Below, in pieces: positions 28,861-57,451 of a stretch of DNA of 64,000 nucleotides. This DNA is from Takakia lepidozioides. Lineage: Eukaryota; Plantae; Bryophyta. The notes under the pieces were generated by a model. That model searched no databases, was not told the origin of the DNA, and saw only the letters and a list, made by a program, of their open reading frames with translations. Location: NCBI GenBank assembly GCA_030704615.1, contig CM060734.1, positions 43,462,001-43,526,000 on the forward strand. The letters are read 5' to 3'. The position numbers and the translations under genes were made by a program. Numbering within the stretch: the first letter of the stretch is position 1; each line of letters begins with the position of its first letter.

Positions 28861-30066
28861 TATGTCACTGCGTTCCCAATGTGTTCCCAAGTTCCCAATA
28901 AGTTCCCAAAGTTCCCTAAGAATATTCCTGAGAATATGCCATAGTATTCCCCCAGTATTCCCCTGGGCCTATACGTATTCCCCTTGTATTCCCCTTGGAA
29001 TAGCCATTTCCCCCTGGCAATAGCCATTTCCCTATACATGCTGGTTACTTCAATGCCAAAGCTTTCTCCCCATAAAACAGACTGGATACATTCACGGACC
29101 TCTGAAAAATTTAAGGAAGAACTAGCTATAACAACTAACCCCAGCACAAAGCCCCAGCACACAGCCCCAACACTGGTTCCCTCGGTGCTTGATCACCTCC
29201 CCTACTCTGCACACAAAGGTTTACTATTTCATGAGCAGAAACCATGAGCCATGAGCCATGAGCCGCATGAGCCGCATGAGCGGTGAGCCGAAGTCTAAGA
29301 TACGCGGATTTCATGAGCGGACTCCTCCAAATTTGGAAATGCGGCAGATTAAACAAGTATTAAAATAATAGTTTTTTATTTGACCTTGCCGTTTTTGGAC
29401 GTTCCAGATCATGTAATGCGGCGAAGATATGTCGTCAGTAACAAGTCCGCTCATGGTTTTTTAGATCCGCTCATGGAAATAAGTGACCGTGCAACGGGAA
29501 ATCCAGTATACCACTGCAAAAGGACGTCGCATACTGGCCTGTATAGAGTATTCCGCGGTTTTACATGCCTTAACATTGGAATGAAGCTGACCCTTTTGCC
29601 GCGATTGAACCAATGGAGTCTGCACCAATACAGTCTGCAGTACTTCACAATTCTGTCTTCTTCGGGTATTCGGCGGGAAAGGTTTGCAACTGAACTGGGA
29701 AATAAGGTGCCGCATTAGGGTTCGCACGTGCGAAATTTCGGAGCGGTTTGGTGTTGGCGAAGGCCGCCTCTACCAGTACCTACGACGATACTTGGAAATG
29801 CGGCGCCGCATTTCCTTGTCGGAGGTCGAATGAGGAAAGCAAGTTTTCGGAAAGCAGAAAAACATGAACCCTCCAACATACAAAAATACATGCACGTGGA
29901 AACAAGTGAACGATATAGTAATATCTTAGTTCGAGCAAAACAGGTTACTGGTAGGCAAGACATATGTCGGACCTTTGTGTGGCCAGAGTCTGAGGTACTG
30001 GCAGCAGTACAGTTCTACTATCCGAAAAGGATGGGCGTACCATTGTATGTGGACCGCAAGCCAAGC

Positions 30067-33000
30067 TCACTGGTCCCCTGGATCCATATTCAGAAGAGTG
30101 TGAACCTCCTGGGGGCTCAACCCTGGTGCATGTATGAAGTGATGAGTTGTGGAATTACAACGGAGTCTCTTTAGGTACACGTAGTACAAATGCTTGCAAG
30201 GGCAGTATGATGCCCCCTTGTTCACCATGATCTGGAAGTCGGTGCAATTGCAGGTGGGTAATTCTGAAATGGTGATGGTGTACACCTCATTGCGAACAGC
30301 TGAGCCCGCCGTGGCCATCTGATACACACGCCCAAATCCTGGTGGGGGCACTTCTGTCGAGCTCTGGATTGTACAGTTCATCCGAAGTGCATTCCCCATC
30401 CTTGTCTCGTTCACTTTTGAGGGAGGTCGCCGCCTCTTCGGTTTCCCCCAACGGTGTGTAGGATGCTTAGAGCTGTCGTGTCCCATTGTTCTTGCTCTCA
30501 CAGGGGTCGGTGGTGGAGGCTGTGGAAGCGGAAATGGTTGTCTGGGGACGTCAGTGCGCTGCACCATCCGAAATCCTGCGGGGGTAAGGGCGTCGGTCTC
30601 AACCTGACTCAGATCGCAGCCTGGTTCCACCGGCCACACCGGGGGAGCCTCTGGCATTGTTTGTATGCCGTACTTGGGCTTTCCATACACGCAAGTCATA
30701 ATGTCGTGCCTGCAGAACCAGAACTGGGTGGTTGTCGCCTCCGCAAACTTTGCATGGACAAATCTTCCTGTAAAAGTAGGAGCAGGGACAGCCCCATCTG
30801 GATTCCTCCTTATCATCTCTAAACAACGTTGCCGTGTATCCACACGAATTGCGGAACACCTTCCTCGAAACGACGGCTTTGTGCGAGCAATTCTCCACTG
30901 TGATGCAGACACAGTCATCTCCACAATGGCTTGGCCATACTGCATAACAGCGGGCGGAATGTGGGGCAAGGGAGCGGTGGGAATTTGTTGCACGAAATCC
31001 CCGGTTGAAGGCGAAGGCGATCTGGAATTTCTTGGGCTTCCACTGCTGGAAGACACATTGTGCGGCAACATGACGGGACCTCGAGGTGCTGTCCGAATGT
31101 TCCTGTCGGATCTCCAGGAATCCTCTTCGCACCCGGGTTCCTCTTCAATCCTCCGCCTGACAGGGCGAGTCCGGACGTCCCCCTCTAGGTGTTCACCTCT
31201 GCGGTGCAGAGGCGTCCCTTTGATCTTCTCTCGCAATGTTGTCGCCCATTTCACTGGATTCTTGGACCTCGAAGCTGTTCGTACCAACAATTCCTCCCTG
31301 TCCGGCCCAAAGCCCCATTGTTTGCCGCTCAGGAACTTGTAGTACGTGGCTTGCTGCATGATTGCTCTGTCGATGTCCTCCGTTGTGGCCGTGACTACGT
31401 CCACCAGATGTGCGGCAGAAGACGCTCGCTAGGAGGAGTGGACCGATTCTGCCATATTCGTGTTCGGCATGTCCGTGTCGGAATCCAAGCACCGCTCCTA
31501 GAAGGACACAAACAATGGTGAGGGACCAATCGAAATGTCCGTAACAGAAAGACAAATGAACGAAATTGACAGCAGCCTACCTCCCGCATGTACTGTCCGA
31601 ACTGTCGATACCAAAAATGCCACCACCCCAACCAGCTGTGCAATGCTCCCAGATTGGTTGTCTCCACTGCACCTGACGTGTTCCACCAAGCCTCGATGAT
31701 AGCAAACTTAACCTCCGCGTCATCAAATGTGGGTGCATCCTTCCACGCCGTACAAAGGACACGGTGTTCAGCCTGGAATGAGCTAGCAACAAATTTGGTA
31801 GTGTAGTGGGATAGACTCTGCATCCAATGGAATCCACAGGATCTCTCTTTCCCCTCCATTGGAACATTGGGGTCCTCACCGTACACACGCCGCACCGCTG
31901 CCCAGTTGGCCTGAGCGTTGTCTGCCATGAATCCCCTGAAATTGGGCTCTGGCAATCCCGCCCTTGCCATCTGCTCGTTTATGCCCTCCCACAGATGCAT
32001 CTCCGACTGTGTGTCCTCCCCTTTCATCTCGCAGATTGCAATCGTCATGAGCCTCTTGGAGTGATAGTCATAAACATGCGCACCCATAGTCACCCACTGA
32101 TGGTTTGTAATTCGCTTGATGTGATCAAACATCACCCAAGCATTCGACAAGTTTCCAGTTGTCATGCGAGTGACCAAGTCGACTCCACTCCCAGGCCCAC
32201 ACGTCGACATTTTGAAAATGTAACAACGATCGGATTCGCTGCCTTGCCCTGGAAACCTGCTACCTTGGATGTAGTCATATCCAGTCATTCGTTTCACCTC
32301 CAGGATTGAGTACATGTCCGACCCCCTGCCGAACTCCTGCTTGCAAGATACGATGTGATTCCGCACATTCGGACTACAAACGTGCGAGACGGACTCCAAG
32401 AGGTCACGCATCTCGTCTTCGGTCAAGGGCTCTCGGTCGGAACCATCTTCAGACATGATTTTGCCAAGAGCAATCTTGTGAGCTGCCTTCAGCTGAATCT
32501 GCTTTGGTCTGGCTCCGGGGCTCAATTTCACCTCCTCTTTTATGATGTCGTGTGCTTCCTGCACAGCCTCACGCATGTTGCCTCTCGCCAAGGGGTGGCA
32601 GTGGACCCCAACGTGTATGCAAGCTCTAGTCAAGTCCGGGAGCAAATGGATAACGTAGTATTGCTTGGCTCTGCACATGGACATGCACGTCGGTGGTTCT
32701 TTGCAATGTGCACACTTGAAAGAACCCGCAGGAGCTTGGCTGGAGACAATGAATGGATGATGCGTTGTGCCAGTCCAATCCGTCTCGTTTCTCCGCCCTC
32801 CTTTGGAGAGAAAGTGGAAGCAGGTGGGATTGAGGCACCTCAGCTTCCCCGCACAGAGGACATATCGTACACGAACACCATCAGCAATTTTCGTGCTACT
32901 GGTCTTCGTCACACACCAGGGGTGTCCGTCATGCTTTCGATCCATGTCTGTTAACATCCCGGAGGCTTTCTTTGACGAAGAAACAGGTGGAAACTCGAAG

Positions 33001-33674
33001 ATGACATTGCCATCGACTTCGGGAGGCAGAAACGTTACCTTTCTGACTGGGAATTTGGCATAGTCGAGAGCAGCCAGCTCGGAGCGAGAACCATCGAGGT
33101 GATGTTGTCGTAGGAGCTGCACAATGGACCGGGTTGGAGTTATGCTCGAGGGCACATACGTAGCACCTACAGAGACGTCCATGCCGGATTTGAACGACCG
33201 TGTGGAGGACATGGGTACCTCAATGCAATCATCTTCCTCGTCGGAAATGTCGAATACGTCCACACGAGAAGCTATGGAGGGTCTTGACGGTCCAGGTCGG
33301 GAATGATTATCGTTGCATACCTCTCTGTTGGCAGTGCCCGCCTCTCGGTTTCCGGACTCCTTTGTGGATGGTGTGGGCAGCGACTGATTCGGAAAGGGAA
33401 TGGGCATTCCCACAGCTCGGTACAGGATGGTGTCTGACGGGGGAACGTGCCATTCGATTCCGCAACCTCCGTCGTTACCTAGCACGACAATGGTCTCGTC
33501 AACCTGTCCAGGAACATCCTTCCTTTCTTCTTCCAAATAAACTGTGCCCGGTTTGAGCTTGAATTTGGAACAAAGGTAAGTTTCAGTCACTCTGCAAAGT
33601 CCTCCCTCGTTTGGGATCCAGGCTCTCCCAAGTTGCGGAGGACAGCAAACTATAGCGTAGGAATTCGGAGCCAT
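30067..33674 (-). pseudogene. Transposase: GCM-like zinc domain, MULE-type DDE core, SWIM finger (one premature stop)
   Basis: DGHPW..CAGKLRC..CAHC..C..HVGVHCHP; VMFDH, FMADNAQA, CGFHW; intron 31580-31498 (GT..AG); PNTNMAESVH then TAG at 31429-31431; SWIM YTITISELPTCNCTDF..CKHLYYV. Confidence 0.8.
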
Positions 33675-34103
33675 CGAACACCGCACGGAGTTGGCAAGTG
33701 CGAGGTTCAGTATAGCGACAGACCAAGGCTCACAGGCACCATCTAAGTGGATCTGCGGAGTCCATCGACGATTGGAAGTCGCACATTGAAGTGGAAAGTA
33801 TTGTTTCAAGCTACATGCATGAAGGTGGGAGGTTTGATTCCATAGCCAGTGAGTATGACAATGATGGCCGATTCGGCGACGAAATAACATATCCTGACAG
33901 TTTCTCCTGAGGGTGGATCCAGCAGTATTCTCGGTGCAGACAGGAACGTTCGCACTGACAAGTGCCAGGACTGCTGGTTAAAACGGTCAGACAACCAAGT
34001 TGTGCTCATCAAGACTGGCCGCAATTGTGTTGTTTCGGAACAATGCAACCCATTGAGGTTCCAGATTTCCCGTCCCGAGTGATTCTTTCGATTGCTGGTG
34101 GAC

Positions 34104-35858
34104 GGAAATACGGCGCCGCATTTCCGTATTGCATCTTGGTCATGCACCAGAGCGACGGAAATGCGGCACCGAGTTTCCGTCCGGGGGAAACCTTTATACT
34201 CTCCAGAACGGAAATGCGGTAACGCATTTCCATCCAGCAAGCACGGTATGTGAAGGTCGAACGGAAATGCGGTACCGCATTTCCGTTCTGATTGAGATTT
34301 ATGAACAACGGGAACAGAAATGCGGCACCGCATTTCCGTCCGAGTCGCACTTTTCCGACATTTCAAACGGAAAAGCGGCGCCGCATTTCCATTTTGTATC
34401 TGATGCATGGAGCTGAGGGATTGAAATGCTGCAGCACATTTCCGTCCTTAAAATACATTCATACTCTCCAGAACGGAAATGCGGTAACGCATTTCCATCC
34501 AGCAAGCACGGTATGTGAAGGTCGAACGGAAATGCGGTACCGCATTTCAGTTCTGATTGAGATTTACGAACAACGGGAACAGAAATACGGCACCGCATTT
34601 CCGTCCGAGTCGCACTTTTCAACATTCCAAAACGGAAATGCGGCGCCGCATTTCCATTTTGTATCTGATGCATGGAGCCGAGTGCGATTCCGACAGCTTC
34701 ATACAGCGCAATTCCGACCGCTTGAGCATTCATACTATCCAGAACGGAAATGCGGCAACGCATTTCCGTTCTGACTGAAAATCGTGAACCATCTGAACTA
34801 AAATGCGGCACCGTATTTCCATCCGAGTCGCACCTACCAACATTCCAGAACGGAAATGCGGTACCTCATTTCCGTTCTGACTGAAAATCGTGAACCGTCG
34901 GAACTGAAATGCGGCAACGCATTTCCATCCGAGTCGCACCTCCCAACATTCCAGAACGGAATGTATTAGATTCAAAAGGGAAATGCGGCACCCCATTTCC
35001 GTTCTGATGAAATATCCTGAAACCTCGGAACTGAAATGCGGTACCGCATTTCCGTCGGAGTCGCACCTTCCGACATTCCAAAACGGAAATGCGGCGCCGC
35101 ATTTCCATTTTGTATGTGAGGCATGGAGCTGTGGAACGAAAATGCGGCACGGCATTTCCGCCACGTCAGACGTTAATACTCTACAGAACGGAAATGCGGT
35201 ACCGCATTTCCATTCTGACTGAAAATCGTGCGCAACGGGAACTGAAATCCGGCACCGCATTTCCGTTCGAGTCGCACCTTCCGACATTCTAGAACGGAAA
35301 TGCGGCGCCGCATTTCCGTTTTCTATATTGGGCCTGGAGCTGTGCTACGAAAATGTGTAGCCGCATTTCCATTCATGTGAGACCTTCAAACTTTCCGGAC
35401 CGGAAATGCGGCACCGCATTTCTGTCCAGGTGAGACCTCTATACTTTCCCGAACGGAAATGTGGCACGGCATTTCCATTCATCATCTAACGGATGTGAAG
35501 TGGGAACGGAAATGCGGTACCGCATTTCCGTTCACATTGAAAATCATGAACCACGGGAACTGAAATGTTGTGCCTCATTCCCGTCCCAATCGCACCTTTC
35601 GACATTCCAGAACGGAAATGCGGCGCCGCATTTCCCTTTTGAATCTCATACTTGGAGCTGTGGGATGGAAATGCGGCACCGTATTTCCGTTCAACAACTA
35701 AGGTATGTGAAGGTGGAACGGAAATGCGGTGCCGCATTTTCTTCCAACAAGTACGGATGTGTAGCTTCGTGATGGTACTTAACGGAAATGCGGCGCCGCA
35801 TTCGCATTTTCGCTCCAACTGATCAGACGCTGGGACGGAAATACCTTGAAATGTGAAC
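34104..35858. repeat. Array of ~32 palindromes GGAAATGCGGCGCCGCATTTCC at 53-bp period
   Basis: Starts at 34104, 34157, 34210, 34263, 34316, 34369, 34422, 34475, 34528, 34581, 34634 ... 35614, 35667, 35720; includes a 265-bp higher-order duplication. Confidence 0.97.
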
Positions 35859-36238
35859 ACGTGGAGCAACGGAATTGCTGCACATGTCGGCACTCATCTG
35901 ACTGAAGGGCATGAGGCGGCGCGGCCTGACCGTTCGTTAATGATGTTTGTTTTTCGGACGGCAGGCGTACCCTCAACGATTCGAATTTCGTAATGACGCA
36001 AACTCCCCGAGGAGACACTTTCGTCCAACCCTTTCGAACCAAGTGGTGCATCACCGCCGTTTCATCTACTTTTGTCGTGTCTCCTCAGTCACCCCTCTCG
36101 CGCCCTTTCCATCTGCACTCTTTGGCCCTTTTCCCTCTCTCTGTTCTTCTTATGCTCGAACCTGAGAGGGGGGGAGTTCGTGCACCAGCCAGGAGACCTC
36201 GTCGCAAGCTCCGGAAATTATACTTCGGACGTAGGCCA

Positions 36239-39200
36239 ATGCCGAAGGGGAGGAAGCAGATGCGTCTACAGGAGGAGATTGCCATCTCCGAGCAGCAGGC
36301 CACTCAGGCAACCCAGCCACCAGTGAGAGCTCCATGCGATCGGGCTGCGGGCAGCTGATCGAGCACCGAACCCCCCATTTTTCTTCTGTAATTCTTAGAC
36401 TGAATGCTAGGAGACTTGAATGCAGAACATGTTTGCATGCCTAACAGGAAAGGTGGACGTGCTGGAGGGATCGCAGGAATCCGAAGAGCCGCAGGAAGAG
36501 TCCGAGGAGCTAGCTGCAGCACGTACACCCACCCGATCCCCGAGCGCGGGTATTCCTGCCGGGCCTAGCCCTCTGCGATTCAAAGACGCGTCTTCGAAGG
36601 GCAAGTTCAAAGTCCCAGAGATCGACTCGCGTTCTTCGGTCATGGAGAATCGCCAGCAGGGGTCGGGCCCTTCTCCAGCAAAGTCGAAGAAGAAGCAGCC
36701 CGTCCCTCTACTGGCTTCTGAACCGGCTCAGGCCGATTCACCCCCCCAACGCGAATGAAGCAGCAGGGTAGAAGACAGATTCAATTGCAGCAGACACCTT
36801 CACCTGCAAGGATGAGGAAGCAGAAGGCAATCAGGGCGACGGGCGAACAATCTCCCGCAAAACCGCTTCCACGAGCTGAAGCTCAGTTCCTGGAGGATTT
36901 CCCGCCTGCAGATGTTGGGGCCGACTCTGCTGCAGCGAAGGCAATGGGATCGACCGTTGATCTCGATTTGGTACCGGAGGAGGGTGCTGCCGCTCAACTT
37001 TCGCAGCAAGACCTCACCACCGATGAGCAAGCAGGCCCGGAGGAGGCCTCTGCAATGGCAGAATTGCCCGCAGACAGGCCCCAGAGTGCAGCTCCAGTTG
37101 AGGATGCTCCAGCTGCTCAGCCACTACCGGCACCTACAGACATGTCTCCGGAGGATTTCAAAAGTGCAGCGGATAAAATGTTGGAGGAGACACACAGTAG
37201 CATTGGCAGAGTTCTGGGCAGCAGGGTATTCCAGCGGACTCTTCGAATCCCACTCTGTCGCATGGTCTCCCTTCCCATCGTCAGGCAGGCCCTTCCCGGA
37301 GATGTGGATAAGCTCAAGTTCGCATTTCGAGAAGGGTACCGTCTGGGATCGGCAGCGTTTTACGTTTCCATTGAGAATGAGGACGGCGAAACTCGTGGAC
37401 CCACTGCCGATGAATTGTCAACGTGGGATACCCACTGGCACACTCGCAACCACGAATTCGAGGCGACGCTGAAGGGTGATCCCGACTTCGGCCATATGTC
37501 GGGTAAAATGTTCTTTGTGTGGGACGGGAATCACCGACTTCTCGCCTGGTGGGAGTACATCAAGCAGAACCATGCCAAGCACATTGGCTGGCATTACATG
37601 GTGGAGTGTGTCATCCTCAAGGTGAAGGCGGCAGACTCCTCCCTGCTCAAGAATGCCATGGCGGACCTCAACTCGTAAGATACTCATACCCTCCCTAGCA
37701 CGTTCGAAATGCGGTGCCGCATTTCGGTTTCCATTCTGGTTTGTTTCCGTGCTTCCGTGTACTGAACTGGAGAGTGTGCCTTGCAGGGTCACTGAAAATG
37801 CGTACGTGCATACCCACATGGCACACATGCTGTACAGGGTGAGGAAAACTGGTCTCACTGATCCGCAGATGTTTGCGGAAATGCTGGAGCCCGAGCTCAT
37901 TCAGAAAGCCGTTGCAAAAACAGACCGGACATGGTATCGTCTCACTATGGATGGAATGGAATGGTGGAGGTGATATACGAAGTAAGTCGTCCTCCAATTT
38001 CCCTCTGCTCATCCTTCCCCAATTTTCAGTAATGTTTCCACATGAATCGAATGTAACGCTTCTGCATGTTTTTGTTGGCAGTCAAACATCAAGCTGGATT
38101 TGGCCCATGCCAAACGCTTCTTCATGGAAAGTGAGGGGCAGGTGAAAACGTTGCAGTCATTGACTGAGCACTTGAAGGAAGCCGGTGTCAAGTCCAGAAC
38201 CAAATACAAGTCAAAGCTTGTGAAGCTGGTGGCAATTGCAGATCCGGCACTTGGAAAGGACTTCATCCCCGAGATTGCAAAACACTATTCTCGGGCCATG
38301 CAGCCGACCATGCAATTGGAGAAACTGCATCACCTCTCAACGGCATGTGTGGAGGCGAAAGAGAAGGTGAGGTTTCAATGCACTGAAGTTCCTTCCTAGC
38401 AATAGCCACTCTCTTCCAGCTCCTGACATTGGATCGGAAATGGCAGACACGGTGGCTGTCGATCTGGAATGCATCCGAGAGCATAAGGACAATGTGGTCT
38501 TTTCCACTCGAAGTTTCCGACCCTGCAGTGGATGTGTGGCTCAACTTGGTGGTTCCAGGTAATTCAAGGTACTTCCCCAGATTTGCTTTTCTGACATGAA
38601 TTCCCTGAACTGCTACGTGACAATGAATTTGGGAATGGCAGGTAATGTCGAATGCGAAGGAGCAAGTCGTAATGCACACAAATTCGTTCGGCTTGTACGT
38701 CAAATGGGATGGAACACAGACATTGGAAGACTACGTGACACGTTTCAGATGTGCGTACAAGGACAACCTTTTCGCCAGAGAGCTACAGACAGCAAGAAGG
38801 AGCGTGGAGTTTACACATCAGGAGGGAGCGGGGAAAGCTGCAATGCGAATTGTTTACAGGTGAAGCACAGCTGCCCTTGTATGCGAAGCCTGGTTACGAG
38901 GTTTGTCTCGGAAATGCGGCACCGCATTCGCATTTTATGTTTTCGGTGGCACTCTGCCCGTAGGTTGGTCTCAACTTTTGCTCACGCATGCTGACTGCCT
39001 TGCAGGTATATGAAATACGTGCTCCTTCAGACAGGGGCCCTGGCTCAAGAGCCCCCGTTCTTCATGGCTTGGACCGTGGCGGGCCCAAGCTGTGTCTACA
39101 CACCCGAGATGCAGAAACAATGGCATCCCGCGCATCTCGTTGGATGCCCGTGGTACCTGGACATGTCTGGCGGTATTGTTGACGAGTCTGAGAAAGATCT

Positions 39201-41359
39201 GCACGCCTTGGCAGAAGAGAAGAGAAAGGAAAGACGTGTCCCTGCTGGGCCAAAGTCGGCAAAGGAATCTGCTGCTCTGGAAGAATCCAGAAAGGCAGCT
39301 GAGATGGCACAAAAGACGGTGGATGCAGCTGTGCAGGCCCAACAGAAGGGGTCGAAGAAGAGGACTCGCCAGCAAGGAGCAGCTGTTGTGACACCCGCCA
39401 AAACGAAGAAGCAGAAACAGCCTGTTCAGGAAGAGGGTGAGGAAGAGGACTCCGATGGAGACTTTGCAACCAGCCCACCCCCCCAAACGCAGGCTGCCTC
39501 CCCTGTGCCCACCGTTGTCACGAGAGGCACGAGAACTGGCTCGGCAAAGAAGGCACTCTTCAACCCCCCAGGGGGGCACCCTTTCGAGCCGGTGGAAATG
39601 AAGAGGCCGAAAGTGGCTCCCGAAACTGTAGTCCAGTGTGTAAATGAGAGTTTCTTGGCGGCTTTGGATGGACGGGCAGCCAAGTTGGCATACCTGAAGA
39701 CCATGGAGGGTCTGAAGGGCAGAGCACTGAAGAAGGCGACTGCCGAAGAGCCTTCCGACACCCCAGGATTTCAGAATATGGTCTCGTTCTTTGAGAGGGT
39801 GTGTGCAGACAAGGATTGTAGGAGGGGCGGAAATGCCACTGAGTGGTCTTGCGATATGATCATCTTGGATATTCCGGACGGAGAGCCTGTGGAAGGACTG
39901 CAAGCTTTGCCATCTTGGAACAGGTACTCGGAGGACTTTTGGAAGAAAGGATTCGGGCTTGCCCGCATGGTGTTGGACGACAGAGGCTGTGTGGTTGTCC
40001 TGGCGAGCAGAGGAAAAAACACTCAGACAGGAATTGCGAAGTGGACCCGCAAGAGCGCCGTCCCGATTCTGAAAAAGAAGTGGACGTGCATCAACACACT
40101 GGGCCTTCGGTCGGAAGGGAAGAAGGTGATTACGACACTGGCACTCGTCCATTCATTTGCTTGGGTGTTTTCAAATGCGGTGCCGCATTCGGTTTCTAAT
40201 CGTTTTCCCCCTGTGTATGCAGACGAAGCAGTTCGATGCATACTGCTTTGTGAAGGAGAACTCCACCTTTGCTTTCCGGAAGGAGGGAGGAAAGGTTGAC
40301 CCGAACTGCGACCCACTCGATTACGACGTTCTGTTCAACAACGTTCCCAAGGAACTTCTCCCTCATAGCCTCACTTCAACGGAACCCCTGCGGTACTCAC
40401 GGACTCGGAGCCCTGCCTTCATTCAGACAATTATGGAGACATGCACAGACGTGGAGGGCACAGTGCTCGACCTCATCTGTGGGACAGGTATGCAGAATCT
40501 TGATCTCTGTTGTTCTGCAAATTCTCGTTAGGATGTAGTTCGCAACATCTGAAGCGCCATGTGGTAATGTGTGGATGGCATTGTAACAGGTGCCTCAATG
40601 TGGGCTGGGCGGTTTTCCGACCGGCACCTCTTTGCCTACGAGGAGGATTCATCCGTGTGGGGATCCCATCTGGAGGGGCTGCAACGGAATGTGAAGGCTC
40701 CCGACAGAGCGGAAGTCTCCTCGGATTCGTCGGAGTCCGAGGAAGACACAGTGGACATTGATGCGGAGGAGAACCCGGAATACGAGTGAGTGCAAACATT
40801 GTAAGTTTGCAAAGCCTTCTGGGTCATTTATGTCAAACGAATTTCCCGACTGTGGTTCTCATTAGTCTCGTTGATGATTGTCATGTGCAGGATTGCAGGG
40901 TCCGGGTCGAAACATGTAGGGCCTACACTTCCTGCCAGGAAGAATGTCCCGTTCTTTGCGAGGGCCGATTTCATGACGAGCCCGGTGAGGGACTACTCCC
41001 TTCCTAGTTATGCAGCTAAACTCGCAAATACAGCGATTAGAAGAAGTGAGAATCCCAGTAAAGTAGAGCAGATTTTGGAGAGGGCTAGGGAGGACAGAAG
41101 GATAAGGAAAGAGTTGGCAGCAGCTCAGACAGGTAGACGGGTACGAAAGCACATATGTGATTCAGCGGATGAGAGCGACGCAGACAGGGAGGAAGACGAC
41201 CCAACGGAGGTGAGATGGACAGTTCCGCAAGGGGAAGATGGGATTTTCGAAAGCCTGGCCAACGAGCAGTCCGCTGGAGATGAGAGAGGCACTGAGGGGG
41301 TGGAGGAGGAGCAGGACAGTCTAGAACAGGATGAGGATTCGGATGATTTTCAAGATTAA
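36239..41359 (+). CDS. Multi-exon gene: ParB/Srx-like domain plus C-terminal N6A/N4C-methyltransferase-like fold (probably slightly decayed)
   Basis: IPLCRMVSLPIVR, FFVWDGNHRLLAW (DGNHR 37523-37537); DMIILDIPDG (~39853-39880); RMVLDDRG; SPAFIQTIMETCTDVEGTVLDLICGTG (~40410-40490); RHLFAYEED. Several GT-AG introns; exon borders approximate. Confidence 0.72.
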
Positions 41360-41495
41360 TAGAATTTTAATGAAGTCTCTGTAAATGTAAATTCTCTTCC
41401 AGAGTATATAAAGGAAATTCTGCCCGACATTCGTGACCCCTCTCCAGTGTGCATTCCAGCCACACAATCGCCCAAACCACGACGCTCCCAAAATC

Positions 41496-42326
41496 AGAAA
41501 TGGGGCACCGCATTTCCAAAACAGGGGAACTCTAAGAACCTCTTTTGGAAATGCGGCACCGCATTTCCAAAACAGGGGAGGGACTAAATTTTCCATTTCA
41601 ATGTTGGCATAGTAAAAAGTAATCTGAATTGGAAATGCGGTGCCGCATTTCCAAAATTTCCTTTGTCCACACGCCAGTTTTGGCCTCTCCCGCTCATTGC
41701 ATGGATGCCACCACGCTTACAGAGGTCGAACAACGAGGTCGAACAAGGAGGTCGACATGGCGGGATTGAAAATGCGGTGCCGCATTTCAGTATTGGGGAT
41801 GGTCGTTGTTCGAACTGCAAGCCCATCAGCAAAAAATTGGCACCGCATTCCATTGTTAAAAAAAAGTCGATGACGGACATGGAAATGCGGCGCCGCATTT
41901 CCAGAACGGACATCGCAATTTGTCCATTTGCAGACCCTCTCTCGGAAATGCGGTAACGCATTCCATCGCGCTGGTCGGAAATGTCACACTTTTCGAAGTG
42001 TTGTACGGAAATGCGGCACCGCATTCCCTTGTCCAAAAAGAAGTTTCCATTGCCAAGCTGGAAATGCGTCGCCGCATTTGCAATGCCAACCTCGTTTTCT
42101 GATCAATTTATAGACCCGTGTTGGTATTTCGTGTACCTGGACGGAAATGATGCACCGCATTTTCTTGTCGGACATGGAAATGCGGTGCCGCATTTCGATG
42201 TCCGACATGGAAATGCGGCGCCGCATTTCGATCCCGACATGGAAATGCGGCGCCGCATTTCGATCCCGACATGGTAATGCGGCGCCGCATTTCGATGCCG
42301 ACATGGAAATGCGGCGCCGCATTTCA
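41496..42326. repeat. Second cluster (15 copies) of the same 22-bp palindrome
   Basis: Starts at 41496, 41547, 41631, 41768, 41831, 41881, 41944, 42007, 42060, 42143, 42176, 42209, 42241, 42273, 42305. Confidence 0.95.
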
Positions 42327-42582
42327 ATGTCCGACATGGCGTTACTCTGGTATATTCTTGACACATGACTCACATACCGGTTACTCTGCTATATTCATCC
42401 GGACAGACACGTTGTAGAAATGAGACATCAAATTGTAAACAGTGGGCCAATTCCGACAGTTATTCAACACAATGAAACACAATCATATAGAAGTGAGGTA
42501 CGATGGGTTTATTGATCGGACACGATGTCTCTCATTTACCAACTGCAGACAAAACTAAGCCCTTCCTCCTTCTACATGGGCT

Positions 42583-43161
42583 TCACCAAGTCGACGGAAC
42601 TTCGATACCCCTCAAAACAAGCTCATCACTGCTGCGGCACCTCGAGGTAAACTGCAATTCGGTCGTTCTGCTGCCCTTGCTGGAGCCGACGACAATGTCA
42701 TGTCCATCAATGATACCACCATCATACATTGACAAGGTCACTGTGGGCCTCATGTGCCCTTGCGATTCGTCTTCGCAACGCAGCCGAATGTCTCCATACA
42801 CTGGAAGAGCGGAGTGATCTGCACGTATATAGTTTTCCCCGGTGCCGTCCTCCCTGGTCCACTGGCAGCAGTTCCAGCGCCAAAGCGAGGCCGTGCGTGA
42901 TCTATCCGGCATCCCTTTCCAGCTTGGTATATAGAGGTCAACAATTTTCAGGACCCACGGACCGCATTGATCCTCGCCCTCACCTCGCTCAAAGCGGTAA
43001 TAGCCCTCTAGATACTCCATTGCGCGCAAAGACTCTTGCTTGATTCCAGCAGCGTCTGTGAAAACAGAGAGCCAGACAATGATGTCTCCTGATTCTGGTT
43101 TGAACATAGCATAATCGTGGCCATGATAAGGGCAGTCGGCTGGATTTCGGCGGCACGGCAT
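42583..43161 (-). CDS. Unknown ~190-aa protein, paralogue A
   Basis: Open ORF from MPCRRNPADCP; aligns over its full length to 43712-44275. Confidence 0.75.
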   Translation of the reverse strand: MPCRRNPADCPYHGHDYAMFKPESGDIIVWLSVFTDAAGIKQESLRAMEYLEGYYRFERGEGEDQCGPWVLKIVDLYIPSWKGMPDRSRTASLWRWNCCQWTREDGTGENYIRADHSALPVYGDIRLRCEDESQGHMRPTVTLSMYDGGIIDGHDIVVGSSKGSRTTELQFTSRCRSSDELVLRGIEVPSTW

Positions 43162-43711
43162 CCTTGAAAAAGAGTAGCGGAGTACGCTCAATGACAGCAG
43201 CTCCCGGATGGAGGAGGAGCAGCGCGGTGGCTGGAAAAAGTTCAAGCTAACGCTGCAATTCCTCACAAACACTCCAGGGCACATTTAAATTTCCCCCCTA
43301 CAGGATCCTGGACCGATGAAGATTGGCTGCTGCATGAATGTAGCCGTTTCTGTTTCCTACCCTGCCATGCAAACTATGGGCAGTCACTGCCAGGTGGGCC
43401 GATAGCCACTGGACACGACGAAGTCCATCCCCTCTTCGATGTAAATGCGGCGCCGAATTTCCATCCGGGGGGATGGACTTCGGTGGCAGATCTCAAACTA
43501 TAACTTGTTGATGAGAAAGATGTATGGCTTCATCCACCGCTGGCGTGATGAACACGTTCCACCTCCGTCGGTGGGTACGTGTGACCCAGATGCTCCATTA
43601 TTGGAGGCCGGACTGCTCTTCCGCTTCGTATCATTTCCAAAATCTAAGGGCTTCGTAGCTGTCCGCAAGGTCATCGGCATCCAAGTCGTCCTCAGGTCCT
43701 CCTTTGCAAGG

Positions 43712-44275
43712 ATGCCGTGCTTCCGGAACCGGGACGACTGCCCCTTTGGAGGCATCGATTATGCAATGTATTCGGCCACATCGGGAGACATTGTTATCTG
43801 GTACACAGATTACACAGAAGATACTGGTTCGATTGTGGAAACATTGGTGGCTTTTGAGTATATCGTAGGCCACTACGCCTTCGAGCGGGGTGACGATCTT
43901 GGTCTGAGGAGTCCGTGGCTCCTACGCATCCTCGATTCCGATTTTCCCAGCTACGACGGTCACCCATGCAGAAGAAGGCGCACTGCTATGCTGTTGCGGT
44001 GGAACTGCTGCCACTGGACGTGGGTGGACTCCATCGGAGAGACCTATTCTCCTCGAGGAGTGCGCTCCTCTTCTCCATTGTATGGGGACATTCGCATTGG
44101 TGTGGACGACGAAAACGTGAAGATTTCCATATTCGATGGTGGTATGATTGAAGGGCAGGACATTGTGGTGAACATCACTAGGGGCGGTACAACGGCTGCA
44201 ATCGACTTTACATGGAGGAGCCCCATGACTCATGAGCTAGTTCTAAGAGCAGTCGAAGTCCCATTGACAACGTGA
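43712..44275 (+). CDS. Unknown ~190-aa protein, paralogue B
   Basis: Open ORF from MPCFRNRDDCP; shares DYAM, SGDI, FERG, RWNCC.W, YGDIR, DGG.I.G.DIVV, ELVLR..EVP with paralogue A. Confidence 0.75.
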   Translation: MPCFRNRDDCPFGGIDYAMYSATSGDIVIWYTDYTEDTGSIVETLVAFEYIVGHYAFERGDDLGLRSPWLLRILDSDFPSYDGHPCRRRRTAMLLRWNCCHWTWVDSIGETYSPRGVRSSSPLYGDIRIGVDDENVKISIFDGGMIEGQDIVVNITRGGTTAAIDFTWRSPMTHELVLRAVEVPLTT

Positions 44276-46638
44276 CTTGTATTCAGTAGGCACAGGGCTG
44301 AAGATTTGATGGCACAATCAGCACAGTAGACGTGCTTCAAATGCAATTCATGTGGATCAATAAAAACCTCATTGTGCCCTCTTTTTATTCTATTCTGTGT
44401 CCATCGTTCCGAGAATGCGTCATTGCTCATTTCGTTTGGGATTGGAGTGTGGGTGAATTTTGCAAATGGCTGGTAGGCTGAAATGGGCCCCCATTGTACA
44501 GAGCAGTACCACCCTACCATTCGCGAAACATTGCCTTTCAATATATAATTCTAAATAACATTGCCGAACCTCCTTCATCGGGAGGTCCTTCTCCCCCTAT
44601 GACCGTGGCACCCTAAACCCTATTCCCGCGGACACTCATTTCCGGAAAATAGTGCTGCTCATGTTTTTTTCCACACTTACGACTCTGCTCATGGCTCATG
44701 CCGCTCATGGCTCATGGCTCATGAAATAGCAGCCCCCTGCACACACCACCAAACCCCCCAAACGCTACACAAATAAAAAGTAACTATGAACACCTGGACA
44801 ACTATACACAACCCCACCAGTATAATTGGCAGCCAAAAATAAATAAATAAATAAAATGGCAGCCATTGTATGCAGATAGAGCACTGAAGCACCTGCGGCC
44901 AGGCGCCACATTCAGCAATCCGTTTAAAACCCAAAACACACAAGCAAGTAACATTGTAGCCCTTCTAAGAACCACATACTCCACTCAACCTATACACAAG
45001 CGGTTATATAACCACTTTTAGGAATCCACAATGCCCTATAACCACATACCAATTACAACAAGGCTTAGCCCTCATTAAATGGTCCCTGCAAATTGCACAA
45101 TTTGAGGCAGACTGAGCACCAATTACAAACGTCATCCAGCTATGCTATGATCCCAAAAAAACAGTTGCAATCTATGCTGCCCCATGAGAATAGCCTTGGC
45201 CCCCTCTATTACTATCAAAACTCATCCATAAACACCCTGCCACTACAGTACATCACTCAAAATAAACTGTCACATGGTACATTAAGCCCTTATATCATCA
45301 CTAAGTGCGAACCATACAATGACTGCTCCCCCCAACTGCAAACCACCACGCCAATCCTGCCCTCTCACGGCTGCCCCCTTTGCTCTGATCTGCGTCAAAT
45401 CCCACATCCAGCTCCTCCTATCGTACAAACCAGCCTGAACACTGCTTCTGTATACATACTATTGAAACCTCCCCATGACACATCTGAAGGTCCCTCAGAT
45501 CTTTATAACCAACCAGCACAAAAACAACTATGTCCCCCCCTACTTCACCCACCACGTACCTTTGTTGATTCCCCTCACGGACCCACGCAAACATTAAATA
45601 CTGCACAATATGTGCCAAACACATGCAACTATCTATAGTTAATTGTTGCATCAGCCCTCATGCAGCAGATCTGCTCCATCACTGGCGATATACCCTCTAA
45701 GGCTGAAATCTGCACTCACCTCCATTAACATATCTTACTGGCCAAATGCTCGACAAATAAATCATATTCACAAATCTCTGAACAACTATGCACAACCCAT
45801 AAAACTACACGATCGCACAGCCAAAATATACCCCTTGGCACCCTAAATGTTGGCTTACCTGCTTAATCTTTAGTGCAATAGGGTCTCCTGAATACCAAGG
45901 ATATGATGCCCTTTATACACCTCATCTTGGCTATCTACGATGGAACTATGCAACAAGACCATGCAATATTAGACTATGTTACCCTTCTGGCACCTCTAAA
46001 GCCAACAATTACTGTTGTAACGCCATACGTCGTCCAAGATTATTGCGCAACAAACCGCCAAGGTTTTACCATACTATAAAAGCCACGAATCATCTATCTA
46101 TACCCTCAGTACAGTACACTTACATGAAATATGGAATAGCCACAAACAATATCATGCACCATCAGCCCACACCCTAGTCCAAGTAGCTTCCACTTCATAA
46201 ATCAAACAACAACCCAAAACCACCAAGCCTACAACCAAACTAGACTATCAATGCACATGACAGCCTTAAATCCCCACACAATGCTATCTATATGCTACCA
46301 AACACAAATAGCATATACCAGACTAACGCCACATTCCAAACAGCAAGCTCAGATGATAGACATCTACATCAGATCCAAGAAGTTGACTCATCCCATTCAT
46401 GAACTTGAAAATAGTTTTCTCAGACTCCCACTACAATGTAGTTGCCTTTGCTGCTGCATATTAAGACTGACCCCTCATACAGATTGGTCCCATGAGCACA
46501 TATCTGCTCACACAATAAAAACCTCCTGATGACTCCCATCCTCTTCTCCGCCTCCCGATAGGGGTTAATTTACTAGCCACAATCAAACCATACCAGCTTA
46601 AATACGTGCATACCCCACCCCTCCCCTCCCCAAATACC

Positions 46639-49600: not shown

Positions 49601-50400
49601 TCCTTCTTGTTTGCGAATAGCACCGGGGCTCCGTAAGGTGACTTACTCGGCCGGATGTACCCCTTTGACATTCGATCCTTGAGCTGAGTCTTCAGCTCGA
49701 CCAACTATCTGTGGCTCAACCGGTAGGGCGCCTTGGCAGGCGGCTCCGATCCCGGTATCACCTCAATCTTGTGGTCAACTCCCCTTCGCGGTGGCAAGCC
49801 GCTTGGTAAATCCTCCGGCATCACATCCTCGTATTTCTCCAAAATCCCCTTGATCCAATCTGGGCTCGGCTCCCCATCGCCTTCTCCCTTCACTTGTCTT
49901 ACATAAAGCAAAAAATAGGGCTCGTGTGACTCCTCCACAGCCCACTCCCTTGCTGACAGAAGGTTTATTTGCCCTCCCACGGGGTTGGGCGTTTCCGACA
50001 CTCGTAAAACTTCGCCACCATTCCCACATGGTAGCGTGACTACTCTCTTGCGGCCATCTATGACCGCTCCGAATATGCTCAAAAAGGTCATCCCCAAAAT
50101 GAGATCCACTCCATCAATCTCGCAAATAGTGAAGTTCTCACGTCCCTCCCAACTCCCGAGCTGAAGAGGAACATCGAACGCCAACCTCGTCGCCAATTGT
50201 GGTTCTCCTTTAGCAGAACGCACCTCAATAGAGGCCCCCACATCACTTGTCGGGAGTCCCAGTTTCCGTGCCGTTGCCGGTGTCATGAAGGAGTGCGACG
50301 CTCCTGTGTCCACCAACAACGACACGTTAGTTCCGGAGATTATCCCACTCACAAACATTAACTGACTCCCTTTACGCAAGGTGCCAGTTTCCGAGGGATG
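46639..50400 (-). mobile_element. Chromovirus-type Ty3/Gypsy, 5'-truncated (protease, RT, RH, integrase, chromodomain, probable 3' LTR)
   Basis: [43 protein letters not shown], chromodomain YKVEAVL..YLVKWKGY; PPT at ~47010-47022; putative LTR 46639-47009 (no second LTR to confirm). Confidence 0.9.
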
Positions 50401-51502
50401 CTTCCGCTTGAGCGTGAGCGTGAGAGCGTGTGAGCCTAGGCGGGCTCACGCCACGTCATCAGTTATTGCCACGTTGGCTGACGGGTCTGACGCCACGTCA
50501 GCCGACCTCGCCAGCGTGCCCGACGCCACATCACGTCATGCCACGTCATTTTCATAGGCATGGCCCTATAACCGCGGACCGAACAGGATAATGGGGGCCT
50601 ATAGCCGCGGATTGCGCATTTGGTAGATAGGGAACCATGTGTGGGGCGATGAGGCGAGGTGCAGAAGAGAGTTTAGGGTTTGTTGGTGAATGTTGCAGAA
50701 TGATAGTGTTTGTAGAGACTGAATAATGGTTGTGGATGTATTAATGTCCAGGTCATTAGTCTACAATGGTCCTCAGATGATTTAATGCCATACTAATGTG
50801 GTATTTTACGTTGCTGTCATCAGCGTAGAATGGTTGTGGATGAGTTTATGAGGATGAAGCAGAGCCAATGTGGATGGGACACTTCTAATATGGATGAATG
50901 GGGATGAATAGTTGTGGACAAATGTAGATGAAATACTGTGAATGGATGATAGAGTGGATGAATGTCGAGCGAGGATGTCATTCTAACATTTATGAAACCC
51001 AAGCACAACGATTAATGTCGTTTGCACAAACATTAGAAATTGTCCCTAAAATCCGTCGTGAAGCACTTGATAAGATTTAATGAATGTCTGGCATTTGGGG
51101 AAATGTAGACAGATGACAGCAACGTAGAATAAGACAACACAACAGATGTGAGAGGATCTTTCATGCTGCGACTTTGTCCAAGTGCTTACTGCAACATTCT
51201 GGTGTGCAGCACGCTCTTCTTTAGCTGTCATCTTCAGTGTCGAACATTGCGAGCCATTTCAGCACTATACTTCCTGCAACGCACCACCTGACCGCGCTAA
51301 ACATGGTTTGGACTCCAATGCTTATTGCGGCCCCTGCCAATGAGGTAGAAATGTGCACCTGTATGTTACGAGAGTATTGCAACTTTCATGGTTTTTCATC
51401 AGGACCATTATACAACAACATTCAAAATGATTTGGCTCTCGTTTGTGCATGAGGAGGAATTCCGGGTCTTACAACATTGTGTAACAGAAATTGACAAAAC
51501 GT

Positions 51503-52388: not shown

Positions 52389-55300
52389 TCACATGCGAAA
52401 TCGTCGTCCAAGACTTTGTCGTCCCCTTTGTTGATTTCCACATGCACTATACCCTGCTGTTGTTGGGCGGCAGGTGCCGGCGCTGGGCACTTCCAAGTTA
52501 TGGAGGAGGTCATTGAAAATGTCCGCATCCTCTTCCATACCAAACAAATGTCTGTCCGCTGCCTTGCAAGCATGGTACGAAGCTCCTGCAAGATAGAGTT
52601 CTCTCAAGACACATATAAACAAATTTTGCACCAAGAAGAAAACACCGCAGCAGGTTGGGGGTGAAACCTGTGCCAAGAGTGAGGTCCACAATACGCGCCC
52701 CCGGATGGGAACAAGTCTCCACAATTGTTTGAATAAATGTTGGGCTCTTCTCCTTGGCCCCTCTCCATGGTGTGGAGTTGGACTTTCGCAAGCACACATT
52801 GGAATCCACGTAATTGTAGTGCATGTCATCCACCACTAGATCGAACTTATCGTTGATGAAAGAAACTCCCCCATGAAGCCTGAACTCCTTCACTGTTGTG
52901 GAAGTTGAAGCAGGGTGCACTCTGACGAGGCAGACGGCCTCAAAAAGGCGGGTCTACACACAAGACAACATGAAGCACCAAAAAAATTCATCTGGAAAAA
53001 ACAGTGCTTGAAACCTCTGAATATGAGTGCGTTGACGCACTCATTTCTGCAGGGGTGAAATGGAACTTAAAATGAAGCATGCAAGAGAAAGTCGATTACC
53101 ATTTGTCCGGGACAGTCGCCCTTTGTCAAGTACAGGCTGTTCACACCATTCCACGTTTTGATGATTTTCATCCCCGAGGTCTTGAGGTAGCTTGCAAGCT
53201 CCCGTCGACATTTCGAATTGACCGACTGGATCATTACAAGAACCCCTGCATCCAATAAAAAAAAATTGCAAAATGAAAAGACCCACCGCCAATACCTCTC
53301 ATCAAATGCATTCCATGTTGGGCAAGTGCCTGTGGGTAGGATGTCCGGTACTGGCAGCCCATCCGGAATGTCCACAATCACCATGTCGGCACAACATGGT
53401 TTCAAAGAACTATTGACCCAACACTGCCCTTTCGAAACCTGAAAACAGACAGACGGAAAAAATTAAATAACTATCCAAAAGGGAAAACAGTAAAGGAGAC
53501 AAACAGTGGGAATTGGCTTACCGAGTCAAGGAATGCACACAGCTTGCCCCAAGTTTGAGAGGGTTCTCCAGTGTAACCAGATTTTCTGCTTTCCATCATG
53601 GCAAGGAATGAATCATTAACAATCTCGCACTTACATTCTCGCTGGATTCTGGATGGGTGCTCCATTGCGTCATATGGCTCACTCCTCCCCTTACGTTTTC
53701 GTTCCTTGTTTGCAATTGGGGTCTGCGCTACCTCACCTCCCGCAGTCTCCCCTTGGGTGGCCTTCTCCTTCCCTTTGTCCTTTGTACCCTTTCCCTTTCC
53801 CTTCCCTCTTGCAGGAGTTTTGTTGGCTGCGGGTTCCTTCTCAGCGAGGTTTCGCAGATTCCTCTCATGCAATTCCTTGTCAGTAAGAGGGGCCAAAGAC
53901 TCCGCATTGTCGTTCTGGTTCCGTGTCTGCAACTCATACCAGGGGCAATCTGATTTCGGAATGTTGAGATACCAGCAACAGTCTTTCAGGTGATATCTCC
54001 CGTAGTCTCTAAGGATGGCTGCCGTGTACATGGTCTGACTGTTAGGGGGTCAGACCACAAGTCGATGAAGGCAGGGTACTTACTGAGGTTTTTTTCCCGG
54101 AATGAGCACGTTCTTGATATACCTACAAAACAAAAGAGGTGCACTTTTAGACATTGAAGGCAAAAAAACATATACTGCGGCCCTCCCAAAATGCGTGCGT
54201 CGACGCACACAGTTTGGGGTGCACAAATTCTTGAGCATGAGGCAACCAAAATACACTCACAAGTACCATATGCAAGAACAGGAGAAAACAAAGGGTTCCA
54301 TATGCAGAAGGTTATCCCCTTTTCGGCAGACAGATATTCCATTCAAAACTGCCAACAAAACATTGAAATCCATGATGGAGGAGAGAGCACATCTGAGTTT
54401 GTGGCCATCTAAAATTGCGTGCGTTGGCGCACGCAATTTTTCATGGCCACAAATTGCCTGTCTACTGATTGCCAAAGAATGTTTTCAAACATAAGACAAA
54501 ATTAACGAACCTGTATAGGACCCTCTTCATGGCTCCCTCCGCCCCGTACTGCTGGTCAAAATCATTTGTTCGGGAGATTCCTCCATCTCGGGAAAACTCT
54601 CTGAAGAAGCAGTTGCTCCAAGTTGTGGCCTTCCACTGCCTCAAGTAATCCTCCAGAGTGTCCTCGGGCACGGTCATGGTAATTTTGTAGTCATAAAGCT
54701 ATTTCTTCAACACCTTGTTTGCACAAGCTTCAATCTGCAGGTATACATATGCATGGGTTAGAGTCCATTCATGGGAAGATATTCTCAAAAATTTCAAGCA
54801 CAGAAAGTCCTGAAAAGTACCTTGCTCCAGTAGGTGGCTTTGTGCAACCATATATCAAGAACTTGGTCGCTGAAGGGTTTGATGTGCCCGGTGTTCTCAT
54901 CTCTTTCACCCCTAGGGAAGCAGTATGTATCCTTGACAGTTGGGTCGGAATTCCAAATCTCCAACCATTTCACTCTCTGGTCAGCTTCCACAGCTGCAGT
55001 TGACAACCGGTGAAGCTTTTCCTGTGTCGTCTCCGGTTTGGTGTTATTGTTCCAGTGGATCCTCACCCGGTTAAGAAACTCAGGACCAAAATCAGGGTCA
55101 GCTATTCTCAGCTGTTTCACGAAAGCGCTCATAAGCTTCTTCCGTATCTCATTCATCGTAAACTTCATGGCTTCCGCCACTCCCTTGGACGTCCTCAGAC
55201 CCTCCGAGGTTTTCAAATAGTACTCCGCTTTTCCTCTCTCTCCAGCTTCAGCTATTTCTTGCTGCAAAACGTAATCCGAAATGAGATCACTTGTTACTGA

Positions 55301-57451
55301 CAATATCCCAACAGACAATGGAAGGCCAGAGTGATGGAATGCTTACAGTGTACATGTACTCCATGAATGCTTCCCTCGTCAGCTTGTACCAGGTATCTGA
55401 CGTATTCAATGTCAAACATTTCTTGAATGACTCCGCACGCAGGATGCTCTTGAATGAATTGAGGGGCATCTGGCCGATATTCTGGATCATGAATAGTGTG
55501 TGAAGAAGGTTCGTTGTCACATGGGCAGTTTCAGTTCCCCTATCACATACAGTGGTGTGTCGTCAGTGAGTGCTAAAAGCAAACAGACAGTGAAGGAAAA
55601 AATGCGGACAATAACAGGTGAAGAAGACACTTACTTGTTAACGTCATGCATTGCCGTCAACAGTGATGTTCTTGCCTGCCATCGCAAATTACTCTGGAAG
55701 ATGCACCAGTGTTACTGGCGGTTTCAAACACATTTTTGTGATGTTTCCCTTGGGATCCAGCACCCTTCCCAAAAGGCTGATGGCATGGGAGGCATCTGTT
55801 GGTCTGTCGGAGCTCTCAGAGATTCCTCGGGCTCCAACTACTCAGATTCCTCCCGTTCTTGAGTGGCCTCATTTTCAAAAGCATGCATCGCTTCCTCAAA
55901 TGGCCGCTTCGGTGACACGTCATCGATCATGTTCCTCCAGGCAAGCAATCGGTGGTTGCCATCCCACACATGAAACATCTTGCCAGAGAAAGGCTAGGTG
56001 ACGAGCCTCTTGCAAATGATAGAGTCGAACTCATCGTTTATCTGTCGCTAGATAGGATCCCAGCCTCCAACGATGGACTCGTCCACCAACACCTCTCTGC
56101 CAGAGGAGTCTGCCAAGGACACGTAAAAAACAGATTGACCCTCTATGTATCCATGGCAAAAATCCTGTTCCAACTTTTGAATGTCGTTCGTCAGAGCTGG
56201 TCGAACGAAGGGCATGGAGATCAAACGGCATAGGGGTATCATTATTTTTCCCCAGGGACGCCCATGGCCTTGATGACTACTTTGGAGAAGGAAAGCAGAT
56301 CTTTTCGCTTTGTCTTCGTATGGCCTGCCATCGTCCTCCTCCGCAATAACCGCCAATTCCTGCTCAATGACTTCGTCCTCTACCTGAGCAGCACCTTTCT
56401 TTTTCTTCGTCTGCACTCAAAACGAAAGGTTACGAATGTAAAAGACTTGCGAGAAATTGCGTGCTTCAACGCACGCAATTTTCCACCCTCTGAAAGGTAC
56501 TCATTTCTTTTCCTACTTCATACCCAAAGTCAATCTACTCTCTTCCATAAAAGTATGCAGCAGACATTTAATCTAATCTCCCTGAATAGGCAGAAATGTG
56601 AGTGTGAGAGAACCTCCAGAAATTGCGTGCGTTGACGCACGCAATTTCTGGGGGTTCTCTCACACTGACTTTTCTGCCTATTCAGGGATTCTGTCTCTGT
56701 TAACACAGCACAGCTGAGAGAAGGCCATACAGAGAACCTCCAGAAAAATGAGTGCGTCAACGCACGCAGTTTCTGGCGGTTCTCTCGCACTCACTTTTTT
56801 GCCTATTCAGGGTTTTTCTGTCTTTGTTAACTTAGCACAGCTGAGAGAAGGTCATAGAGAGAACATTCAGAAATTGCGTGCGTTGACGCACTTATTTTCT
56901 TGAGTTTCTCTGTATGGCCTTCTCTCAGTTGTCGAACTCTAATCTCAGCTGTCCCTCTTCCTATGCAGTACATGGAAAGTGAGAAATGGGTCATACCCGG
57001 GTTTGGTTGTTATGCATTGCCTGCATCCCTGTGGTCTTACTCTGAACAATCAAGCAAAAAAAAACAGAATAGAGGGCAAGAAAATTGCGTGCGCCAACGC
57101 ACGCAATTTTCATGCCCTGGAAACTTGACAGAAGATGGCAAGTAAGAGAATCACCTGAGGTCCTTTTGCCGAAGAACTCCCAGATGCCTTTGATGTGGCA
57201 ACAACGGCAGCCTTCTTAACCTTTGGCGTCGCCTCCTCCTCCACGACATTCTTACCCTTCGGCGTGGATTCCTTCGCAAGAGCGTCTGCCTCGTCTGTGT
57301 CCATAGCGTCTGTGTCGTTCTCTGACGCAGTCTCGTCCCCAACTTCATCACGAGCTGGCGGCTGGTCCTCCACCGCCATGTGTTTGGTTTCCAGGGTTGC
57401 GCTCTCCTCTGCGATCTCCTTCAGTGTCATGTTGAGCTTTCGGCCTTTCAT
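52389..57451 (-). CDS. Second multi-exon ParB-like plus amino-methyltransferase-like gene (diverged homologue, partly decayed)
   Basis: MKGRK start; IPLCRLISMPFVR; MFHVWDGNHR (DGNHR 55949-55963); IADPDFG..EKLHRLSTA; DMVIVDIPDG; KSPTFIQTIVETCSHPGARIVDLTLGTG; RHLFGMEED. Collinear with 36239-41359. Confidence 0.72.
56453..57110. repeat. Intronic cluster of the 30-bp palindrome GAAATTGCGTGCGT-NN-ACGCACGCAATTTC
   Basis: Copies centred at ~56467, 56633, 56758, 56884, 57095; more at ~53033, 54201, 54425. 56580-56690 forms a ~110-bp hairpin. Confidence 0.93.

Follow-up and report, generated by a model that had tools for sequence, protein, structure and literature searches.

Analysis of a 64,000-nucleotide stretch of the Takakia lepidozioides genome (contig CM060734.1; hereafter the window) revealed a 15.5 kb, multi-copy, Mutator-like DNA transposon (29216..44736) whose cargo gene, gene 1, joins a ParB/DUF3723-like domain to a domain with a predicted methyltransferase fold. 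Palindromes with a CGG-N2-CCG core are confined to this element, and the arrangement recurs in other genomes. Overall, our analysis suggests that the gene 1 product may bind these palindromes and may methylate or shield their cytosines, so that the element would escape silencing by 5-methylcytosine (5mC). This is our preferred reading, held at a little short of an even chance in its complete form; self-targeting of the palindromes, by an active or a dead enzyme, is probable. The initial annotation of this DNA recognised the methylase domain correctly and overlooked the transposon that carries it, the fusion to a ParB/DUF3723-like domain and the element-specific palindromes.

The element is flanked by an exact 9 bp target-site duplication (29207..29215, + strand, on the left and 44737..44745, + strand, on the right; 10 bp with one mismatch). 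Short terminal inverted repeats occupy 29217..29320 (+), where 7-mer subrepeats occur, and 44657..44736 (-). Hence a 9-11 bp target duplication and inverted ends, both features of the Mutator superfamily, are present. Contigs of run X3 total only 1.75 Mb, yet they cover all 30 bins of the gene. One X3 contig, at a depth of 61, ends at 44737, the flank at 45255-46396 has no X3 cover, and a run X4 contig runs from 44737 into a different flank. The breadth and depth of X3, its end at 44737 and the alternative flank in X4 together indicate that the 15.5 kb element is multi-copy; its ends and its multi-copy state favour self-targeting. The transposase gene (30067..33977, -) consists of two ORFs (31395-33977 and 30067-31428) encoding a Cys/His domain, a DDE-like core with CxxH and a C-terminal SWIM-like finger. 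The DDE-like residues, CxxH and SWIM are motifs that we take to be of Mutator type; the SWIM match reached only E 0.061, and no MULE match to the transposase was found in Pfam. The element is called Mutator-like on these motifs and the 9 bp length of the duplication. Two further cargo ORFs of no known family, X1 (42583..43284, -) and X2 (43445..44275, +), form a divergent pair with 45% identity, with no match in Pfam and no counterpart in the 80 related loci described below.

Gene 1 (36448..41359, +) was modelled with nine exons, the start codon not being fixed, and encodes the ParB/DUF3723-like domain, a helical middle, the methyltransferase domain and an acidic tail. All eight modelled introns are GT-AG. 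Intron 38367-38446 is cleanly skipped by a run X2 contig, where runs X1 and X2 were taken as RNA by guess and contigs 88% alike may stem from other copies. As assembled, the gene has at least nine stops in every frame. Placing N placeholders at three indels between run X3 and the window gave a single open frame of 1362 codons, with a GNHR motif at about codon 357 and DIPD at about codon 968. Since the frame opens only when the X3 indels are bridged, the window copy is broken by three frameshifts, all upstream of the methylase domain; other copies are probably intact.

The ParB/DUF3723-like domain (37220..37674, +) was recognised in family alignments and the Atlas. A GxxR-type pattern is present in this N-terminal domain as G-N-H-R, and R14/R22 and N151 are conserved (alignment A7); these residues presumably correspond to the ParB boxes. 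Language-model look-alikes in the Atlas were DUF3723 clusters (0.95) and a ParB_N cluster (0.92, with 11% of members labelled). Several results weigh against a ParB identity and to that extent against self-targeting: hhalign against a narrow set of seven plasmid-type ParB domains gave a probability of 2.5%, Pfam found ParB in none of 21 family members, PDB profiles likewise gave no match, and the ParB-like region of the model of homologue P0051 is of low confidence. Hence the domain appears ParB-like by pattern, and its identity as ParB is not established. Among the look-alikes of 37220-37674 are DUF3723 clusters from fungi and a cluster without a name that has members in Cnidaria, a hint that eukaryotic mobile elements may share a family of ParB-like cargo. 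DUF3723 is described as a conserved cargo of fungal Starships, which are giant mobile elements (bioRxiv 10.1101/2021.12.13.472469); the resemblance of our domain to it is one of language-model likeness with no HMM match in Pfam, and serves as a lead only.

The methyltransferase domain is encoded by three exons (39850..40700, +), with the motif IV residues DIPD at 39868-39879 (+) and motif I, VLDLICGTG, from 40463 (LDLICGTG from 40466), across intron 40488-40589. Splicing of 39007-40779 at GT-AG introns 40126-40222 and 40488-40589 yielded 524 stop-free codons. It placed motif IV first and R..F..E.D after motif I, which agrees with the motif order reported initially. DIPD was likewise confirmed in both genes of the window, at 39868 (+) in gene 1 and at 53372 (-) in gene 2. 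Gene 2 (52455..57450, -) is a diverged homologue with methylase exons at 53438-53100, 52953-52668 and 52585 onward; its spliced methylase domain is open and its ParB-like part contains in-frame stops. The spliced methylase domains of the two genes are identical at 75 of 225 columns (33%), with an alignment score of 303 against a mean of 32 and a maximum of 55 in 500 shuffles. Run X1 contigs, at a depth of about 3, skip both gene 2 introns equivalent to the methylase introns of gene 1. The first methylase intron of gene 1 is read unspliced by one X1 contig, and no contig among the run contigs spans either of the two gene 1 junctions.

Direct profile searches of the window exon pieces gave no PF01555 match at E<=1 and nothing relevant in Pfam, PHROGs or NCBIfam; homologue P0028 scored 13.7 bits against PF01555, under the gathering cut-off of 26.7. 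With the motif IV exon as query, word-based protein searches found zero relatives among 85 and 68 candidates, and a search of 1.84 billion representatives found 22 proteins at E<=0.001. Ten of these 22 were checked, three of which had named clusters, all from Adiantum ferns, and a profile search added five further Adiantum proteins. The family profile placed M1.HpyAVI at the top among PDB entries (E 0.02). Structures were predicted for homologues P0026 and P0051, the window exon pieces being rows in both input alignments, and were compared by Foldseek and its re-alignment. Mean pLDDT was 55 for P0026 and 57 for P0051, the motif IV half being confident and the remainder weaker. CcrM was the best match of both models, with E 5.5e-4 for P0026 and E 4.8e-6 for P0051 (Z 10.4, rmsd 4.6, 203 aligned), and other beta-class enzymes came next. 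N4CMT stood 31st among the ranked fold matches (Z 8.2), and the RNA methylases METTL3/14 were among the fold matches, ranked under the DNA enzymes. A Rossmann-fold methyltransferase match, whose absence had been named in advance as the refuting outcome, was thus found through the homologues (CcrM, M1.HpyAVI). The proposal of a beta-class amino-methyltransferase fold is therefore supported by the homologue models, the order of the motifs (IV ahead of I) and the M1.HpyAVI profile, the window pieces themselves giving no PF01555 match; the fold remains a predicted one.

Judged from the fold, a prokaryotic origin of the methylase is plausible. Close relatives were found neither in viral contigs nor among named phages, nor, with the N-terminal domain as the only query, in prokaryotic genomes. 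A match to the Levivirus/Q-beta coat (E 0.019 and 0.0016) extended over 34 residues only and was dropped because it is at odds with the family alignment and the fold. In the fern gene model P0053 the motif IV exon (DLPY) and the gag domain of a retrotransposon (PF03732) form one gene, probably because one element inserted into another and the two were annotated together.

Comparison of motif IV among 27 homologues revealed aspartic acid at the first position in 26, a hydrophobic residue at the second and proline at the third in 26. The fourth position is occupied by threonine in eight homologues, phenylalanine in seven, aspartic acid in four, glutamic acid in three, serine and tyrosine in two each and asparagine in one. 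None of the 27 has PP. Glycine occurs at +5 in 20 homologues, W[ND] occurs downstream in all 27, and the glycine loop of motif I is kept in the six homologues displayed. Because the fourth position is free among the homologues, DIPD is one state of a D-hydrophobic-P-x motif. Its conservation, as initially claimed, holds for the two window genes and does not extend to the wider family. The consensus (D/N/S)-P-P-(Y/F/W), with its stacking aromatic, is not matched by DIPD of either window gene, and in modelled N4CMT this aromatic stacks on the target base (PMC10406627). Of these differences it is the missing aromatic that counts, rather than DIPD itself. Nine homologues retain phenylalanine or tyrosine at the fourth position, among which a fern subclade has DLPY or DLPF. 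DLPY-type motifs are frequent in phage beta-class methylases. The retained aspartic acid, proline, glycine at +5 and W[ND], the aromatics of the nine homologues and the motif I loop favour a working enzyme that targets its own element; the absence of the aromatic from the other 18 homologues and from both window genes stands against it. Catalytic activity of the methylase domain is predicted at about an even chance.

The free variation of the fourth position also fits a catalytically dead domain, in which case the protein would bind the palindromes, perhaps together with SAM or a flipped base, and would act only as a shield or scaffold. Methylase domains of DIRS1 retrotransposons have been described as likely inactive (PMC4738411), and VANC proteins protect their elements through repeat binding (PMC10398659). 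Set against these precedents are the persistence of the aspartic acid, the proline, the motif I loop and the following acidic residue in very diverged members, and the DLPY/DLPF of the fern subclade. On balance we regard a dead enzyme as less than likely, though only somewhat behind the preferred reading.

When metagenomes were scanned with the N-terminal domain, 316 pattern matches arose and 244 of them were confirmed; 80 loci were kept, 55 of them distinct at 98%. In many of the longer loci, methylase exons follow downstream in the same orientation, and stops mark many of the long loci as decayed. Fifteen distinct loci have 5 kb or more of upstream sequence; a transposase of the same family was found beside the gene in three of these by direct search and in five after one iteration. 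In these five it is always upstream and on the opposite strand, as self-targeting cargo would have it; the 15 loci gave no match on the downstream side or in the orientation of the gene. The ten loci without a transposase, many of the loci being short or decayed, weigh against self-targeting. They would also suit a host gene caught by chance in the manner of a Pack-MULE, or a domesticated methylase of the host, comparable to Marchantia DN4MT1, as would the introns and some spliced transcripts. However, the divergent pairing with the transposase is found again in other genomes, and many decayed copies alongside intact ones with dN/dS of about 0.09 (median 0.09 for the N-terminal domain, from those 27 pairs, out of 210, whose dS was usable) form the pattern of a transposon gene. 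A host origin of either kind is therefore very improbable.

All 51 copies of palindrome A (arm-CGG-YR-CCG-arm) in the window lie inside the element and none lies in an exon. A tandem array of 33 copies, the one at 35785 counted among them, with a period of mostly 53 bp fills 34105..35804, between the divergent transposase and gene 1, and a second cluster (41497..42325; 12-13 copies by boundary) follows downstream of gene 1. Single copies occur at 29699 and 29795 near the left end, at 43442 near ORF X2, and in three of the eight modelled introns of gene 1 (37706, 38911 and 40172). This confinement of the copies, and their placement between the divergent genes, downstream and in introns, argue for a target on the element itself. 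Within the element 37 CGG-N2-CCG palindromes were counted where 0.4 would be expected, and the rest of the window has none. In the 55 distinct related loci, 31 CGG-N2-CCG palindromes with other arms were found against 1.0 expected, in 16 loci, which further favours self-targeting; the pattern used for this count was chosen once 31 of the same loci had already been inspected, which weakens the argument, as do the 39 loci with no palindrome. The period of 53 bp is about five helical turns, and periods elsewhere are about 51 bp (L040), 75 bp (L018), 127-132 bp (L015) and 213 bp (L003). A tandem palindromic repeat at L036:5590-5890, downstream of a ParB-like match, has a period of about 50 bp and a core unlike CGG-N2-CCG.

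Analysis of CpG sites in palindrome A revealed only four CpG-type transitions at 204 arm positions. The central dinucleotide is CG in 15 copies, CA in 18, TG in eight, TA in nine and AG in one, a CpG decay series. Arm CpGs spared beside a decaying centre agree with self-targeting. Copies of an array are non-independent events, however, and a young array would keep its CpGs too; selection, protection and a recent origin of the array are each able to explain the near-intact arms. The homologous gene 2 is accompanied by a different palindrome, B, in eight copies (53021-57108) with the core GCG-N4-CGC, a difference that counts against self-targeting in view of the homologous protein; the ends and transposase of a gene 2 element were not found within the window.

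The palindromes might instead be sites for the Cys/His (GCM-like) domain of the transposase, with the methylase acting on something else, such as element RNA or bulk chromatin. Palindrome A has the arm ATGCGG, which we take to be close to a GCM site, and the presence of METTL3/14 among the fold matches, even below the DNA enzymes, would suit an RNA substrate. Other families, however, keep the CGG-N2-CCG core only, lacking ATG, and the palindromes are internal and in cargo introns, the element ends bearing a different 7-mer repeat. We consider this explanation unlikely.

Under the preferred reading of self-targeting, a dimer would load on a palindrome through the ParB/DUF3723-like and helical parts, and the methylase domain would bind SAM and methylate an exocyclic amino group, N4 of cytosine in CCG or CG being the favoured guess. 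The conserved downstream tryptophan may substitute for the lost stacking aromatic. The mark, or mere occupancy, would keep the promoter region between the transposase and the cargo gene active, and the frameshifted window copy would rely on intact copies elsewhere. A more specific version, which we rate as improbable, is that plant Mutators of a widespread family encode an amino-methyltransferase that is active, has a rebuilt catalytic centre, is loaded by a ParB-like clamp on parS-like CGG-N2-CCG palindromes, and writes 4mC on the CpG and CCG sites of its element, which blocks host 5mC.

Comparison with known systems revealed the closest resemblance to the Plavaka cassette of red algae, in which PAG2 combines an N6A methylase with SET and PAG3 combines ParB with a 2OG oxygenase, together with inverted-repeat arrays; a similar accessory cassette is reported in Chondrus Mutators, and self-modification is proposed there without demonstration (bioRxiv 10.1101/2025.02.11.637652). 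For Chondrus, the available text of PMC6431247 mentions only enlarged En/Spm elements. As far as the published descriptions allow comparison, both are large DNA transposons in which tandem inverted repeats accompany a ParB-like protein and an amino-methylase. In the element described here, unlike Plavaka, the ParB-like and methylase parts are fused in one gene rather than separate, SET and 2OG were undetected, most members lack the motif IV aromatic, and land plants are among the hosts. The VANDAL/VANC system of Arabidopsis (PMC10398659) is similar in arrangement alone: Mutator-like elements with degenerate ends, a cargo gene and family-specific short motifs in noncoding tandem repeats. Unlike VANC, the cargo here has a predicted methyltransferase fold and a ParB-like domain, and its candidate targets are palindromes with a conserved core; no homology to VANC emerged from the analysis. 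VANC and PAG2/PAG3 with their inverted-repeat arrays are precedents in favour of self-targeting. Hence a ParB/methylase/repeat cassette is a kind already known from red-algal Plavaka, and the fused plant form appears to be new: outside subscription journals and Repbase, the literature yielded no account of plant Mutators in which ParB and methylase are fused.

The predicted domain shares its fold and the order of motif IV before I with the beta-class enzymes CcrM, M.BceJIV, M1.HpyAVI, MboIIA and PvuII. It differs from them in having D-hydrophobic-P-x in place of DPPY/SPPY, in an identity of 9-20%, and in being eukaryotic, intron-bearing and multidomain. Marchantia DN4MT1 and bdelloid N4CMT likewise represent eukaryotic beta-class amino-methylase folds. 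Their motifs are TSPPY (bioRxiv 2021.02.12.428880) and SPPY (PMC10406627), respectively, and, as described in these sources, both serve as host enzymes, which sets them apart from gene 1 by motif and architecture. The parallel drawn initially with these two enzymes therefore finds no backing in either feature.

If the more specific version is true, a transposon licenses itself by a bacterial-type DNA mark. As a putative VANC-like cargo, the family would give plants a second, enzyme-shaped case with a defined candidate target, the palindrome. Its proteins and repeats form natural pairs that diverge in step, and its motif IV occurs naturally both with the aromatic and without it. The candidate target, the natural pairs and the variants therefore open three matters to experiment: whether a transposon can mark its own DNA, whether palindromes in the nuclei of eukaryotes are loaded by ParB-type domains, and whether an amino-methylase can dispense with a stacking aromatic.

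Other mobile elements surround the transposon in the window. A high-copy Ty3 element occupies 46635-50445, with breaks in the run contigs near 46635 and 50392. An N-terminal fragment of a cytochrome P450 (22419-22976, -; E 4.6e-11) lies among relics of copia-like elements (7296-9083 and 19600-21925). Retrotransposons with C5 methylases occur in charophytes and dinoflagellates. In the window, a PF00145 domain (C5 cytosine methyltransferase) is found in two Ty3-like retroelements, at 11983-19281 (+; E 1.5e-12) and 24600-27981 (-; E 1.1e-11), the former with a PHD finger after the integrase, so that C5-methylase retroelements neighbour the amino-methylase element.
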